Numbered from the stretch's first letter, positions 53,317 to 59,588 are shown. The stretch is 64,000 nucleotides of DNA from Alphaproteobacteria bacterium (GCA_963555825.3 CAUVXB020000001.1:2144001-2208000); one strand, 5' to 3'. The notes: generated by a model from the letters alone, not told the origin. Program-made: numbers and translations.

Positions 53317-54051
53317 TCAGACCACCATGCCATAGATCAGCACGAAGACGATCGGCATCAGGCTGGCGAAGGCGATCAGGCCGAAGCCGTCGATCAGCGG
53401 GTTGCGCCCGCGGATCACCGTGGCGAGCCCGATGCCGAACGCGGCGACCAGCGGCACGGTGACGGTCGATGTCGTCACCCCGCCGGCGTCATAGGCGCCG
53501 CCGACGATCTCGTCGGGCGCAAACGGCGTGGTGGCGATGACCAGGCAGTAGCCCGAGATGATGAAGTAGTGGATCGGCCAGCCCTTGACGATGCGGAAGA
53601 CGCCGATCACCAGCGCGACGCCGACCGACACCGCGACGGTGTAGCGTAGCCCCGAGGCGTATTCGGCCAGGGCCGCCTCGTCCTTGCCGATCAGGCCGGC
53701 CTCGGCGGCGCTGCGCGCGGCCTCGGCGGCGACCGCGATCAGCGCCGGCTCGGCCACCGTGGTGCCGAAGCCGAGCGCGAAGGCAAAGCCGAACAGCCAG
53801 AACAGACTGCCTTTGCGCGCGAGGTCGCCGGCCATCGATTCGCCGATCGGGAACAGGCCCATCTCGAGGCCCTGGATGAACAGCGCGAGGCCGAACATGA
53901 CCAGCACCAGCCCGCCGAGGATCGAGTCGAGATTGGCGATCGGCTGGCCGAGGACGGCGAGCTGGAAGAACGCGATCACCAGGATGATCGGCGCGAGGTC
54001 GCGCAGGGTTCCCAGGATCAGGCGGCCGAACGAGGCGAGCGAGGCGAGCAT
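53317..54051 (-). CDS. DUF1538 membrane protein
   Basis: [25 protein letters not shown]. Confidence 0.88.
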
Positions 54052-54145
54052 GCCTCCGCTTGTAGCCGCCCGGGGCGAAGCGGGCAATGACCGAGGTCGC
54101 TTCCAACCCCACCAATTCAGCGGAATGGCATAAGGTGACGGGGCG

Positions 54146-55690
54146 ATGAAACGCATGACGCGAATTGGCGTTGCCGCCGCGGTCGCGACGCTATTGGTCG
54201 TCGCCGGCATCGCCCGCCTGGCCGATCGGCCGGCGCCCGTCGCCGACCCGCCCGTCGGCGGCTACGCCGAGGCGCCGTGCTGGTTCGACGTCGACCTCGA
54301 TCGCACGGTCGTCTGCGGCGCGTTCGTGATCCCGGAGAACTGGGATGTTGACGGTTCACGCACACAGCGCCTTTCCATCGTCACCTTCAAGGCGGCGCGC
54401 GGTTCGGGCGCGGCGGCGCCCATCCTGTTCCTCAACGGCGGACCGGGCGACCGGGTGCGCACCCGCACCGACAACGAGGTCCGCGATTGGGCCGATTGGC
54501 TCAAGCGCGAGACCTGGACCCATGAGCGTGACTTCATCGTACTGGCCCAGCGCGGCACCAACTGGACCGACGCCAACCTCGCCTGCGCCGAGCTCGGCGA
54601 CCCTCGGCTGTACGCCGGTGTATCGGAACAGCCGGGCGCCGAGACCGATTGGCGCACCGACACCAAACGAGCGTACGAGGCATGCCGCGACGGACTCGTC
54701 GCCGCCGGCCACGATCTGGCGGCCTACAGCACATACCAGGGCGCCAAGGACGTCGCCGGGCTCAGACACGCCATGGGCGTCGACGGCTGGGTGCTCTACG
54801 GCGTCTCCTATGGCACGCGCCTGGCGCTCACGGTGATGCGCGATCATCCGCGGGGCATCGACGCCGCCGTGCTGGATTCGGTCTGGCCGCCCGAAGTCGG
54901 GGTCGGCGCCGACGACTCCGCCGCCTTCATGGCGACGCTGACCAAGATCGCCGAGGCCTGCCGGGCCGACGCGGTCTGTAACGGTCGTTATCCCGACGTC
55001 GTCGGCGCGTTCGTCTCGTCGATCGAACGCCTGCGCCGCGCGCCCGTCGAGATCTCCGTCCCGGGCACCGGCGGCGCCAAGTCGCTGTACGTTCTCTACG
55101 ACCCCACCTTGTTCGTCGACACGCTGTATTTCGCGATGTACTGGTGGGATACGGTGAAGACGATACCGAAGGCGGTCGACGGCTTCGCGCGGTCGGATTT
55201 CGACGCCTTCGTCGGACTCGCGCGCGATTACATCGACGACCCGCAATACGAGGCCTTCGCCCACGGCACGGCCACCGCGATCAACTGCAACGACAACCTG
55301 GCGGTCGATGCCGCCGTCGACTGGGACGCGCAGGTGGCGGCGTATCCGTTTCTGCGTGAATGGATAGACGACTTCAACGACGACACGTTCTGCGACGACT
55401 GGGCGCTCGACGTCGCGCGCCGCGGCACGGCGGCACCCACCGTGAGCGATATTCCGACGCTGCTGCTCGCCGGCGGGCTCGACGTCGCGACGCCGGCCGA
55501 ATACGCGCGCATGACCGCCGCCCGACTGTCGGCGTCCCATCTGTTCGTCTTCCCGGCGACGAGCCACGACGTCATCGACAGCCACCAATGCGCCAGCGAC
55601 TTGGTCGCCGCGTTCCTGGCCGACCCGGCCCCGCGGCCAGCGCCCGGCTGCTTCGACCCCGACGAATCGGTCCAATTCGACGACGACTGA
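54146..55690 (+). CDS. Exported alpha/beta hydrolase (tripeptidyl peptidase/TAP-like)
   Basis: NGGPG, QRG, GVSYG nucleophile, D.ATP, SH motifs. Confidence 0.88.
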
Positions 55691-55735
55691 CCTCACGGCC
55701 TCCGTATGCCACGGCCTCATGCTCCAACGTCTCTA

Positions 55736-55858
55736 TTCACGCGGAGACGCGGAGCGGTCAAGTTGGTCGAAACGCGGCTCATTCAATGCGTTAGGCCGGG
55801 GCGCGGCAGCCCCAATTCCCCCGCCGACGCGCTCCGCGTCTCCGCGTCTCCGCGTGAG
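55736..55858. repeat. (CGCGGAG)n inverted-repeat unit 1, no gene inside
   Basis: TTCACGCGGAGACGCGGAG ... CTCCGCGTCTCCGCGTCTCCGCGTGA. Confidence 0.85.
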
Positions 55859-55877
55859 TTCGGGGCACCATCTATTC

Positions 55878-55944
55878 GGTGTCAGACACCAATTTTACCT
55901 ATTATTTTCAATAATCTAACATACGAGAAATAGTGTCTGACCCC
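55878..55944. repeat. AT-rich miniature inverted-repeat element
   Basis: GGTGTCAGACACCAATTT ... AAATAGTGTCTGACCCC. Confidence 0.7.
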
Positions 55945-55989
55945 ATTAAGTTCCGGAGTTCGTTTGGGGGTGGCGGCGCGGTGGTGGGC

Positions 55990-56108
55990 TCAGATGATGG
56001 CGTGGCGCACCTTGGCCGAGACCCACTCGCTGACCACCACCGTGGCGATGATGATGAGCAGGATGACGGCGGCCGGATCGAACTCGTAGCGATCGAAGGC
56101 GGTGTTCG
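55990..56108 (-). pseudogene. C-terminal fragment of a PhnE-like ABC permease
   Basis: NTAFDRYEFDPAAVILLIIIATVVVSEWVSAKVRHAII* with no upstream gene body. Confidence 0.6.
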
Positions 56109-56144
56109 GCGTCGCGCCCTCCGGGCCGCCGCGCGCCCCAAAGC

Positions 56145-56717
56145 CTAATCGTTGCCAACGGTTCGATTCACGCGGCGGCGCGGAGACGCGGCGTAGACGA
56201 TTTGCCGGCGCAATGGGTCGCCTTCGGGCACGCGGGGATGGTCGAAATCGCGCGACGGATCACGGCTCATGCCGATGCGTTTCATGACGTTGACCGAAGA
56301 TGTGTTGGCCGTCGCGGTATAGGCGACGACTTCATCGATCCGCAGATTTGAGAAGCCATGGTCGAGCCATTTCTCGGCGGCTTCGGTGGCATAGCCGTTG
56401 CCGACGAATTGCGGATCGAGCTGCCAGCCGATTTCGAAATGCACATCATCCGAAAATGGCAAATAGTCCGGCACGGGCCGAATGCCGACGTCACCGATAA
56501 CGGCGCCGTCGGCTTTTCGCTCGACGACGGCATAGCCACAGCCTGTCTCGGTTATGGTCTCGATCTGCTTGTCGATGAAGTCGTCCGACTCGGCGGGCGT
56601 TACGACACCCGTATGATAGATCCGCGTTTGCGGGTTACCGGCGATCGTGGCGAACACGGGCCGATCTTCAGCGCGGTGGTTGCGGATGATGAGGCGCTCG
56701 GTTTCAAAGATGATCAA
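56145..56717 (-). CDS. RimJ/RimL-type GNAT acetyltransferase, inside repeat unit 2
   Basis: FETERL, EIGW, GNGYATEAA, N..S..VMKRIGM, FDHP. Confidence 0.9.
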   Translation of the reverse strand: MIIFETERLIIRNHRAEDRPVFATIAGNPQTRIYHTGVVTPAESDDFIDKQIETITETGCGYAVVERKADGAVIGDVGIRPVPDYLPFSDDVHFEIGWQLDPQFVGNGYATEAAEKWLDHGFSNLRIDEVVAYTATANTSSVNVMKRIGMSRDPSRDFDHPRVPEGDPLRRQIVYAASPRRRVNRTVGND

Positions 56718-56753
56718 TTAACCCCCCTCCGCGTCCTCCGCGCCTCCGCGTGC
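56167..56753. repeat. (CGCGGAG)n inverted-repeat unit 2 enclosing the GNAT gene
   Basis: Arms at 56167-56193 and 56727-56753. Confidence 0.85.
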
Positions 56754-56769
56754 TCATCTTGAGCCGCAC

Positions 56770-57213
56770 CTAACGACCATCACCGTTTCGATTCACGCGG
56801 AGACGCGGAGACGCGGAGGGTTCAAGATCATTAACGATCCGCTTGAGTCCCTCTTTAAGCGTCGGCGCGCCGAAATTGATCAACAATCCGACCGACAAAT
56901 TCATGAGACGCAGATAGGTCAGCACCTGCTTCGGGTGAACGGATTGAAGCCGCTCGACCGACTTGATTTCAACGACAACGCGCGACTCGACCAGCAAATC
57001 CACGCGGAGCCCGTCATCGAAATGCAGGCCGTCATAGTCGAACGATACCGGTTTCTGCCGCTCGACCAGCAAGCCGCACCGCTGCAAATCGCGCGCCAGC
57101 ACCGTCTCATAGACTGACTCCAGCAAGCCCGGCCCAAGCCCCGTGTGTAGCTTGTATGCCGCGTCGACAATCTCGCCGGTGACGTCGTCCAATGATTCCG
57201 CCGTTGTCATCAA
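56770..57213 (-). CDS. GxxExxY protein (PD-(D/E)xK nuclease fold)
   Basis: LGPGLLESVY, RVDLLVE..VVVEIKS, QVLTYL, GLLINFG. Confidence 0.93.
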   Translation of the reverse strand: MMTTAESLDDVTGEIVDAAYKLHTGLGPGLLESVYETVLARDLQRCGLLVERQKPVSFDYDGLHFDDGLRVDLLVESRVVVEIKSVERLQSVHPKQVLTYLRLMNLSVGLLINFGAPTLKEGLKRIVNDLEPSASPRLRVNRNGDGR

Positions 57214-57244
57214 TCTTCTCGGCGTCCTCCGCGCCTCCGCGTGC
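56792..57244. repeat. (CGCGGAG)n inverted-repeat unit 3 enclosing the GxxExxY gene
   Basis: Arms at 56792-56818 and 57218-57244. Confidence 0.88.
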
Positions 57245-57279
57245 CCCGTCTAGCTGTTAACTGTTACCGGCCGTTTAAG

Positions 57280-57430
57280 TCACGCGGAGACGCGGAGTGC
57301 GCGGAGAACTCGAGATCATTCACGCCCCGTGCGAAACCCGTAAGCCGCGTCAACAATCTCGCCGGCGGCGCCGTCGAAAGCCTTTACTGTCACCATTAAA
57401 CTACTCCGCGTCCTCCGCGTCTCCGCGTGC
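57280..57430 (-). mobile_element. Unit 4: internally deleted GxxExxY derivative between the same inverted repeats (MITE-like)
   Basis: Arms 57280-57306 and 57404-57430; interior encodes MVTVKAFDGAAGEIVDAAY joined to sequence matching the GxxExxY 3' end. Confidence 0.75.
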
Positions 57431-57455
57431 CCCCTATTGTTTCGCTGACGCCCGC

Positions 57456-59588
57456 CTATGGCCCGCGGCGGCGCTTCTTCGACTTGCGCTGCTGGAAGGC
57501 GCCGTGGCGGCCGCGGCCGTAGGGCTGGCCGGGCGCACCGACCTTGGCCTTGTGATGGCGCGGCACGACGCCGAGCTCGATCGCCTCGAGGCGCTGGATC
57601 TCGTCGCGCAGCCGGGCGGCCTCCTCGAACTCGAGGTCTGCGGCGGCGGCGCGCATGCGCTTGTTCAGATCGGCCAGGTGCGTCTTGAGGTTGTCGCCGA
57701 CCAGGTGAAGCACGTCGCCGGTGTCGACCGTCACGTAATCGGCCTCGGCGACCGAATGCAGGATGTCGTTGACCTGTTTGCGCACGCTCTCGGGCGTGAT
57801 GCCGTTGGCCGCGTTGAACGCCTGTTGCTTCTCGCGCCGCCGGTTGGTCTCGCCGATCGCCGCCTCCAGGCTCCGGGTCATCTTGTCGGCGTAGAGCACA
57901 ACGCGGCCGTCGATGTTGCGCGCGGCGCGGCCGATTGTCTGCACCAGCGAGGTCTGCGAGCGCAGGAAGCCCTCCTTGTCGGCGTCGAGGATGGCGACCA
58001 GCGCGCATTCCGGGATGTCGAGCCCCTCGCGCAACAGGTTGATGCCGACCAGCACGTCGAAGGCGCCGAGGCGCAGGTCGCGGATGATCTCGATACGCTC
58101 CAGGGTGTCGATGTCGGAATGCAGGTAGCGCACCCGGATGCCCGCCTCGTGCATGTACTCGGTGAGGTCCTCGGCCATGCGCTTGGTCAGCGTGGTGACC
58201 AGCACGCGTTGTCCCTTGGCGGCGCAGTCGCGGCACTCGGCCATCAGGTCGTCGACCTGGTTCTCGACCGGACGCACGATGCAGACCGGATCGATCAGCC
58301 CGGTCGGGCGGATCAGCTGCTCGGTGAAGACGCCGCCGGTGCGGCCGAGCTCCCACGGCCCCGGCGTCGCCGAGACGTAAATCGCCTGCGGCCGCATGGC
58401 GTCCCATTCCTCGAACTTCAGGGGCCGGTTGTCGATGCAGCTCGGCAGCCGGAAGCCGAAATCGGCGAGCGTCGATTTGCGGTTGAAGTCGCCGCGATAC
58501 ATGCCGCCCAGCTGGGGCACCGCGACGTGGCTCTCGTCGACGAAGATCAGCGCGTTGTCGGGCAGATACTCGATCAGTGTCGGCGGCGGCTCGCCCGGCG
58601 CGCGCCCGGTCAGGAAGCGTGAATAGTTCTCGATGCCGGCGCAGTGGCCGACCGTCTCGAGCATCTCCAGATCGAAGGTCGTGCGCTGCTCGAGCCGCTC
58701 GGCCTCCAAGAGCTTGCCGTTGTCGCGGAACCAGGCCAAACGCTCCTTGAGCTCGGCGCGGATGCCGACGATGGCCTGCTTGAGCGTCGGGCGCGGCGTC
58801 ACGTAGTGGCTGTTGGCGTAGACCTTGACCGCCTCGAGCGCCGCGGTCTTGTGGCCGGTCAGCGGGTCGAATTCGACGATCTCCTCGATCTCCTCGCCGA
58901 AGAGCGACAGCCGCCAGGCCCTGTCCTCGTAGTGCGCGGGGAATATCTCGACGACGTCGCCGCGCACCCGGAAGCAGCCGCGCGTGAAGTCCGCATCGTT
59001 GCGCCGGTACTGCAGCTCGACGAGTTGGCGCAGCAATTGCGCGCGGTCCACCTGGCCGCCGACCTTCAACTCGATGATCATCCGCGCGTAGGTCTCGGGC
59101 GAGCCGATGCCGTAGATGCACGACACCGAGGCGACGATGATGACGTTGTCGTTCTCGAGCAGCGCGCGGGTCGCCGAGTGGCGCATGCGGTCGATCTGCT
59201 CGTTGATCGAGGCGTCCTTCTCGATATAGGTGTCGGTGCGCGGCACGTAGGCCTCGGGCTGGTAGTAGTCATAATACGAGACGAAATACTCCGCCGCGTC
59301 GTCGGGGAAGAAATTCTTGAACTCGCCGTAGAGCTGGGCCGCCAGCGTCTTGTTCGGCGCCAGCACCAGCGCCGGCCGGCCGACCCGCTCGATCACCTTG
59401 GCCATGGTGTAGGTCTTGCCCGAGCCGGTGACGCCCAACAGCACCTGATCGCGCTCGCCTTGCGCCAGCCCGGCGACCAGCTCCTCGATCGCCTTCGGCT
59501 GATCCCCCGCCGGCCGGTAGTCGGAGACGAGGCGGAACGGGCCGGTTTTGGGCGGGGATGCGGGGTGCGTTGCAACTTGGCTTGGCAT
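57456..59588 (-). CDS. uvrB: Excinuclease ABC subunit B
   Basis: [32 protein letters not shown]-terminal UVR domain. Confidence 0.97.

Follow-up and report, generated by a model that had tools for sequence, protein, structure and literature searches.

Organization of the locus downstream of uvrB

The window analyzed here is a stretch of 64,000 nucleotides (nt) from Alphaproteobacteria bacterium (GCA_963555825.3 CAUVXB020000001.1:2144001-2208000). Downstream of uvrB, at positions 55737-57430, it contains a pile-up of small palindromic elements, which forms four consecutive units on the + strand; strand terms refer to this strand unless stated otherwise. One unit carries a gene of the GxxExxY family and another encloses a GNAT acetyltransferase gene. 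The order in the window is uvrB, unit 4, unit 3, GNAT, remnants, a convergent alpha/beta-hydrolase gene and a pair of DUF1538 genes. The main features, including the open reading frames (ORFs), are as follows.

55737..55857, no strand: unit 1, a gene-less shell with arms at 55737-55757 and 55830-55857 and an interior of ~73-85 nt
56110..56136, no strand: degenerate arm-like stretch (direct-repeat family D3, 78% to the arm reference)
56137..56167, - strand: spacer S2, beyond the GNAT 3' arm, containing the GNAT stop TAG at 56145-56147
56145..56717, - strand: GNAT ORF, unit 2, 190 amino acids, Acetyltransf_3 (PF13302), RimJ/RimL-like
56168..56193, no strand: GNAT 3' arm, three octamer units, two with an A-to-C change on the + strand
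56727..56752, no strand: GNAT 5' arm, reading CACGCGGAGGCGCGGAGGACGCGGAGG on the coding strand, its last GGAGG 8 nt ahead of the TTG start
56753..56792, - strand: spacer S3, from the GxxExxY 3' arm to the GNAT 5' arm, containing the GxxExxY stop TAG at 56770-56772
56770..57213, - strand: GxxExxY gene, unit 3 (PF13366, TIGR04256; predicted PD-(D/E)XK fold)
56793..56818, no strand: GxxExxY 3' arm (inverted repeat I1, 26 nt, 100% with a unit 1 arm)
57218..57243, no strand: GxxExxY 5' arm (D3, I3), last unit degenerate
57281..57429, - strand: unit 4, an internally deleted GxxExxY element, reduced to its arms, ~24 initial codons and a few terminal ones
57456..59588, - strand: uvrB, which adjoins the elements upstream and has the same orientation (ORF; synteny by tblastn)

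In every unit, the opening arm starts with TCACGCGGAG and continues with more CGCGGAG units, while the closing arm is the reverse complement and ends with CTCCGCGTG. An arm consists of about three tandem octamers (CGCGGAG-N). The same inverted arms bracket both the GNAT and the GxxExxY genes, and the conserved shell that an earlier reading of the DNA alone (the sequence-only reading) had proposed for these two genes is real. Counted with at most 2 mismatches, the arm motif CGCGGAGRCGCGGAG has 13 matches in the window where 3.71 would be expected (shuffle maximum 8, n=100), and 12 of these 13 fall within 55740-57427. The arm pairs of the window are inverted repeats of 17-28 nt with 86-100% complementarity. 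Counted as whole units, there is a single intact element, another with an internal deletion, and one or two empty copies. The deleted unit 4 is related to unit 3 by the direct repeat D1 (57135-57247 vs 57321-57433, 76%).

The arms are predicted to form stable RNA structures. Isolated shells fold at -70 to -76 kcal/mol and junction hairpins at -53 to -68 kcal/mol, and the arms close around GNAT in both the minimum-energy fold and the centroid. The arms of unit 1 (inverted repeats I9 and I10, 18 nt, 100%) give a fold of -70.1 kcal/mol (z -4.5). The hairpin J32 (56727-56818), made of S3 and its two arms, reaches -67.7 kcal/mol (z -7.3), a value equalled by 0/200 shuffles. On the other side of GNAT, the degenerate stretch 56110-56136 and the GNAT 3' arm, separated by a ~31-37-nt spacer, pair with each other (I23, 15 nt, 93%) and form the decayed junction hairpin J2x (56110-56193; -53.3 kcal/mol, z -2.8), and 2/200 shuffles were equally good. 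In Rfam searches, the hairpins gave only a spurious microRNA-precursor match far under the gathering score, and 20 PF13366 loci gave none.

Ends shared by the GNAT and GxxExxY genes

The GNAT and GxxExxY proteins are unrelated and nevertheless end alike, as the sequence-only reading had noticed; the translated ends are ...YAASPRRRVNRTVGND in GNAT and ...EPSASPRLRVNRNGDGR in GxxExxY. In agreement with the same reading, the 3' flanks align without gaps; the 32-mers at 56144 and 56769 are identical at 23/32 positions. In coding orientation and with the arm included, 41/64 nt are identical between the two flanks. The non-arm spacer alone matches at 16/31 positions in a register set by the arm, a level reached by 326 of 127,938 31-mers of the window (~0.25%). 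Both ORFs translate the 3' arm in one frame and meet a TAG at equal distance past it, in a partly homologous spacer, so that the arm-derived endings read ...AASPRRRVNRTVGND in GNAT and ...SASPRLRVNRNGDGR in GxxExxY. All reading frames of the arm are free of stop codons, so GNAT translation runs on to the TAG in the tail.

The GNAT protein itself is a clear member of its family (PF13302, Acetyltransf_3; 104 bits, cut-off 25.4, E 1.4e-29, residues 8-150). Its C-terminus is atypical of close homologues: past IVY comes the arm-encoded AASPRRRVNRTVGND, and the last ~14-15 residues and the stop codon are encoded by the arm and spacer. The ends of 121 GNAT homologues (120 listed and one further cluster member) were compared, and 118 of them lack the tail and have native ends, mostly ...QIVYSI at 176 amino acids or short variable tails. 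The tail is therefore foreign to the GNAT family, as the sequence-only reading had anticipated. An arm-type tail was found in three GNAT proteins only among the 121, namely that of the window, P0002 and P0121. P0002 is 85% identical and ends ...YAASPRRQV; it lies on a contig of 1026 nt that is possibly cut at the repeat. P0121 ends ...IVYSASPRLRANRNAGKY, while P0003, a member of its 90%-identity cluster, ends natively (...IVYSVRRNH), as does P0004. Since P0121 is tailed and the at least 90%-identical P0003 is tail-less, the 3' arm module of GNAT appears, as read from the protein sequences, to be polymorphic among very close alleles.

Similar signals were proposed for the starts of the two genes, with a TTG directly after an arm that reads GGAGG. 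This holds for GNAT, where TTG 56717 lies 8 nt past GGAGG, but not for GxxExxY. The latter ORF is listed from TTG 57213, and the ATG directly next to it at 57210 is the likely start. The nearest intact GGAGG lies ~15-18 nt upstream, because the last unit of the GxxExxY 5' arm reads CGCCGAG. The broader suggestion that repeat ends supply translation signals stands for GNAT, where the arm places GGAGG 8 nt before the start and the module contributes the tail and stop. The stronger notion, that the arms evolved as a supply of stop codons, is weak, as 23/26 GxxExxY ORFs of other lineages end ahead of the 3' arm. Arm read-through is a peculiarity of the GC-rich, stop-free arm type and no family trait, and translational coupling as a family trait was rejected on the same count.

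GNAT as a resident gene of the uvrB-DUF1538 interval

The position of GNAT was compared by tblastn synteny between the genome of the window (G000) and genomes of the same family (G005, G007, G009, G010 and G011). Contig C136 of G005 carries uvrB, BenE, GNAT (70% identity), DUF1538a and DUF1538b in this order. A contig of G010 holds BenE, GNAT and part of DUF1538a, and no uvrB was seen on that contig. A metagenome locus (L168), whose GNAT is 66% identical, likewise shows BenE-GNAT-DUF1538. In G007, G009 and G011 the DUF1538 genes directly follow uvrB. G000 retains uvrB ... GNAT ... DUF1538a, DUF1538b and has a strong match to GNAT at one place only. Arms were found at 0/80 metagenomic GNAT loci (216 kb; among the matches listed) and at 0/3 family loci, and 400 other genomes of the class contain no close GNAT at E <= 1e-40. 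These syntenic armless orthologues indicate that GNAT is a resident gene and not cargo, and that the arms came to GNAT; BenE would have been lost, and the last codons and stop of GNAT replaced by the arm. Alignments to a BenE relic upstream of GNAT and to a relic of the native downstream spacer are ambiguous.

Two short matches were observed in the relatives. The native BenE 3' end (L321:1800-1835, L304, L168) has CGGCGGCGCGG, 10/11 identical to the arm core, which sits roughly where the GNAT 5' arm now is (window 56727-56760); these alignments are too short for evidence. A 9-mer similar to CACGCGGCG lies past the GNAT stop of the relatives. Both matches may represent microhomology, a target site or chance.

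The interval between uvrB and the DUF1538 genes is a variable hot spot. The alpha/beta-hydrolase gene at 54146-55690 (+ strand; PF08386, PF00561) is missing from it in the family relatives examined.

The GxxExxY nuclease and its element family

The GxxExxY protein of unit 3 matches PF13366 (PDDEXK_3; 1.1e-37) and TIGR04256 (7.9e-39; 132.6 bits vs a cut-off of 35), and it is encoded by the one PF13366 gene in G000. Residues G26, E31, Y34, D71, E81 and K83, which make up the GxxExxY motif and the D...ExK catalytic residues, are invariant among 20 sequences. The structure model has a predicted local distance difference test score (pLDDT) of 89.7, with low confidence in the arm-encoded tail, and its best fold matches, which are weak, are PD-(D/E)XK nucleases including Cas4, Hjc and lambda exonuclease. 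A sequence search of the PDB with GxxExxY gave no match. Taken together, the nuclease looks intact and has a PD-(D/E)XK-like predicted fold. PF13366 is given as a family of unknown function in the part of the literature source cited here (PMC3424549).

A complete element consists of a 5' arm, the GxxExxY gene, a 3' arm and a short tail, and gene-less copies are hairpins. In G000 the arm 17-mer is present at the uvrB locus and in one gene-less shell on another contig, and nowhere else. Other genomes carry many more copies. G016, of the same class, has 51 arm matches, which form at least 15 short hairpins and one 446-nt unit; this unit holds its only PF13366 gene, between arms identical to those of the hairpins. 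In G057, 143 arm matches occur mostly as pairs ~120 nt apart (about 70 pairs), and its only PF13366 gene lies inside its one 458-nt arm pair. The exact 17-mer was found in 129 or more reference-genome stretches, which come from many phyla, including Acidobacteriota, Gemmatimonadota, Verrucomicrobiota, Planctomycetota, several proteobacterial orders, Bacteroidia and Nitrospirae.

Eighty exact-arm loci were fetched with their flanks, and at the stringency used they comprised 42 CAC-outward pairs, 4 CAC-inward pairs and 34 single arms. GxxExxY (L063) was the sole gene found inside the arms of these loci, in a screen of 37 ORFs judged by eye without Pfam, and its ORF ends ...SASPRLRVNQTGRAG. Genes at L110, L068 and L051 were considered as arm cargo and rejected, as they lie outside the hairpins. 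These loci, together with the armless syntenic GNAT orthologues, do not support a travelling shell, or the gene replacement or ORF capture that the sequence-only reading had put forward.

The link between arms and GxxExxY extends across the family. PF13366 is present in 78/401 genomes of the phylum, and at 25/30 fetched PF13366 loci the gene lies between inverted arms of tandem 8-9-nt units with a score of at least 12, compared with 0/51 shifted controls. The arm units differ by lineage, with CGCAGAG, CACAAAG, CACGAAG and CACAGATGAA types. According to genome handle lists compiled by hand, the three-unit arm pattern occurs in 58/78 PF13366-positive vs 31/323 negative genomes, and within one well-sampled family in 53/62 positive vs 25/48 negative genomes. 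The position of the start codon relative to the 5' arm varies among 24 PF13366 loci (L245-L267, one family): at 12/24 the ATG is at the outer arm end and the arm encodes an N-terminal peptide, and in ~8/24 the ATG comes immediately after the final arm unit.

Among eight G016 copies, no consistent target-site duplication was apparent; one copy has a 7-nt repeat in both flanks, the L029 hairpin at 1501-1563 with the 7-mer CGAAACG. The AATCGAAACG motif of L029 also follows the 3' arms of the window; it may reflect target preference or duplication and is unclear in other copies. No transposase is present among the ORFs and family matches of the window locus. This small, widespread hairpin element is apparently undescribed; no published description was found in the literature searched, supplementary files aside.

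Origin of the arms around GNAT

Our overall reading, to which we give a probability of about 0.65, is that a resident host gene was boxed and partly rewritten by element ends. The data establish the anatomy of the locus, the residency of GNAT, the source of its tail and the association of arms with GxxExxY genes throughout the family. GNAT, as the resident, would have come to lie with a 5' arm on one side and a 3' module of arm and tail on the other, the latter replacing its last few codons and stop, and the 5' arm would have put GGAGG 8 nt ahead of the TTG start. In this reading the arms may also act as RNA stems masking the ribosome-binding site until opened. Two routes may be envisaged: either arm-spacer-arm hairpins with CAC inward were inserted on both sides of the gene, or one-sided deletions took place within flanking elements. 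One or other of these, hairpin insertion or one-sided deletion, is the most likely way in which the arms came to surround GNAT. GNAT lies between two CAC-inward modules, J32 (56727-56818) and the decayed J2x (56110-56193), and lone CAC-inward hairpins do occur elsewhere (4/80 exact-arm loci), for example at L050, downstream of an ORF that we take to be probable nuoK. Homologous recombination between whole elements cannot give the observed arm order.

If this reading is correct, a very widespread small hairpin element is able to rewrite the ends of host genes, giving them a new C-terminal tail, a stop codon and a 5' leader. The locus provides a natural test case, with a resident gene that has element ends and close relatives with and without the arm, and this comparison lets one ask whether elements recruit host genes and how hairpins insert. 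For annotation, it accounts for a class of odd protein tails that are encoded by repeats.

Several points weigh against this reading. Whole elements inserted beside the gene would leave the reverse arm order, and the order 5' arm-GNAT-3' arm needs either the rarer hairpin topology (the 4/80 loci above) or two separate deletions. No state intermediate between armless and boxed GNAT was seen. The P0121 fusion beside the native P0003 would also be explained by a mobile GNAT cassette or by allele exchange. G000 carries these arms only at the locus and in one empty shell, and element activity is presumed. Across four runs, three of RNA libraries and one of DNA, no excision or variant joints were found, which is a weak negative as it covers contigs only; the DNA contigs, from one related strain, have the same structure as the window and no joints. 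The RNA evidence consists of assembled contigs of RNA libraries, which may include DNA. As regards the family-wide link, the arm score threshold of 12 was chosen after the controls had been seen, related genomes are non-independent and association tests overstate significance, and arms without a detected PF13366 gene occur in 31/323 genomes, such as G637 with 160 matches.

The main alternative is that GNAT is true cargo, the 5' arm, GNAT and the 3' arm-tail forming a mobilisable cassette that arose by cargo swap or by birth in situ. The polarity and abutting layout of GNAT are exactly those of the GxxExxY units, the units adjoin with homologous spacers, and the GNAT-arm fusion appears in three GNAT lineages, one with a tail-less sibling of at least 90% identity. 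Against this stand the synteny with armless orthologues, the one strong GNAT match and single PF13366 gene in G000, the 0/83 other GNAT loci with arms (80 metagenomic among the matches listed, and 3 family loci), the lack of any non-GxxExxY gene inside the arms at the 80 loci with this arm, and the lack of joints in contigs covering the region. We regard cargo as unlikely. A related possibility, which we hold equally doubtful, is the birth of a cassette, in which hairpin recombination sites were implanted around the resident gene and GNAT became able to be excised or exchanged, or to be moved in trans by the nuclease; the presence or absence of the tail among near-identical GNAT alleles would then be the trace of such cassette traffic. 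Integron-like arrays offer another model, in which the arm-spacer-arm palindromes would be attC sites. GNATs are common integron cargo, and the locus has short same-orientation ORFs separated by imperfect palindromes of ~90 bp. However, the best TIGR02249 score in the genome, 79 bits, falls short of the cut-off (265), so that no integrase is present, the palindrome ends lack the RYYYAAC / GTTRRRY core sites, and these arms are also found in many phyla as solitary, dispersed hairpins. With no integrase above the cut-off, this model is largely refuted and very improbable.

The arms might instead be kept by the host for RNA control, as targets of RNase III or as stems that mask GGAGG, with read-through coupling GxxExxY and GNAT translation. 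The predicted folds contain stems of 26-27 bp that sequester GGAGG. The stop of the upstream ORF lies 17 nt ahead of the next 5' arm. A scan of 55600-57600 found no sigma-70-like promoter and one terminator-like site, in an AT-rich insert described below, and uvrB is a possible source of read-through transcription. RNA-library contigs bridge uvrB-GxxExxY (56794-57536, with the uvrB end, unit 4 and GxxExxY) and GxxExxY-GNAT (56559-56826, from the GxxExxY 3' arm into GNAT). These contigs are compatible with read-through from uvrB, but as assemblies that may include DNA they neither prove transcription nor show RNA ends or cleavage. Similarly built 23S rRNA intervening sequences are cut by RNase III, according to the part of the source cited (PMC4990558). 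On the other hand, read-through is no family trait, given the 23/26 GxxExxY ORFs of other lineages that end before the arm; the GNAT 3' arm and the next arm are decaying; and the relatives would, judging from their loci, express the same GNAT without arms. RNA control as the main explanation seems to us rather improbable. Finally, the genome is GC-rich and the spacer similarity alone is modest (16/31), which might suggest a chance likeness of GC-rich, low-complexity sequences. Such a likeness is refuted by the shuffles, 0/100 of which reach the 13 arm matches (3.7 expected), and it would fit neither the fold z-scores of -6 to -7 nor the 17-mers that are shared unchanged between phyla and always found as inverted pairs; its probability is negligible.

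Comparison with known systems

The element resembles the repetitive extragenic palindromic (REP) sequences, REPINs and their RAYT (TnpA-REP) proteins, the latter encoded by a single-copy gene. As in that system, there are many gene-less palindromes and one gene flanked by inverted repeats (in G016 and G057), and the repeats form clusters and nested groups between genes. By this analogy, the hairpins may be mobilised by the GxxExxY nuclease. Unlike RAYT, the protein of the element is PD-(D/E)XK-like (PF13366) and no HUH/Y1 (IS200/IS605-like) transposase, and its arms consist of tandem 8-9-nt units, with one arm 17-mer common to many phyla. Activity of the element, in this comparison, is presumed.

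A second relative in construction is the ORF-bearing intervening sequence (IVS) of 23S rRNA. The example of Coxiella burnetii has a terminal stem of ~28 bp around a small ORF, with tandem heptamers beside the ORF start, and its stem is an RNase III substrate, as described in the portion of the source cited (PMC4990558). At the window locus, terminal inverted repeats similarly give a long stem around an ORF. In contrast to the IVS, the element lies outside rRNA, has a different ORF family and octamer units, and a host gene is found between arms. No rRNA match was obtained in 54000-59000 or at 20 PF13366 loci (Rfam), and the locus lies between protein-coding genes. PF05635, the four-helix bundle protein of 23S IVSs, also occurs outside rRNA with inverted tandem-heptamer arms (20/30 loci vs 0/54 controls). 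At these PF05635 loci (L273-L302), arms such as GTAGGCA are repeated up to 6-7 times. By analogy, the element appears to be built like an rRNA intervening sequence and to behave like REP/RAYT.

Integron cassettes with attC sites are also similar in having short same-orientation ORFs split by imperfect palindromes, and both systems raise the question of how a host gene gains a flanking recombination site. They differ in that the element has no IntI and no attC core sites, and its arms derive from tandem octamers. In Geobacter metallireducens, 48 sites of four tandem octanucleotide repeats each occur as opposite-strand pairs at variable distance; their consensus is GTTGCTYN, and they are interpreted as binding sites of a global regulator (PMC2700814, as far as its cited part goes). 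Their consensus is unlike that of the element, and no link to GxxExxY is reported in that part of the source (PMC2700814).

Further observations at the locus and in the genome

One more fragment lies between the shell of unit 1 and the degenerate arm-like stretch.

55990..56109, - strand: orphan fragment of 39 codons, directly after a decayed arm (translation; whole-genome tblastn)

Its translation looks like the C-terminus of an ABC-type permease, based on a weak tblastn match (E 0.74) and our own reading, and the whole genome contains no full-length paralogue by tblastn. Between this fragment and unit 1, an AT-rich insert of ~70 nt (55878-55947) interrupts the GC-rich region. It has a short inverted repeat, GGTGTCAGACACC / GTGTCTGAC, and a 73%-similar copy on another contig (C2:2371696-2371765), and may represent another small repeat family. 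In a sponge-associated RNA library, a ~92%-similar uvrB of a related organism has an arm ~18 nt past its stop (contig loose end, 57457).

A census of arms in G000 gave 25 arrays of at least 3 units. Some ~15 further sites belong to a second arm family, with CACAGAG / CACAAAG octamers and arrays of up to 15 units, for example at C1:644067-644157, C2:226584-226784, C2:1081320-1083356 and C2:1807112-1807211. G000 has no second PF13366 gene to go with these arms. The widely spaced array pair on contig 2, near 1081300-1083400, was examined as a possible bracket and rejected; the reversed-pattern control for this pair is not valid, since reversing the CACAGAGA repeat yields a rotation of it. A large ORF (C2:1081898-1083157), which we presume from our own reading, with no family scan, to be an IS256-like transposase, lies there between two long same-orientation arrays, as if inserted into one array. 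Mixed arms were also observed elsewhere: in a Parvibaculum metagenome-assembled genome (L106, ~1501-1772), CGCGGAG, CGCAGAG and CGCGAAG units are interleaved, and the closing arms are not strictly nested.

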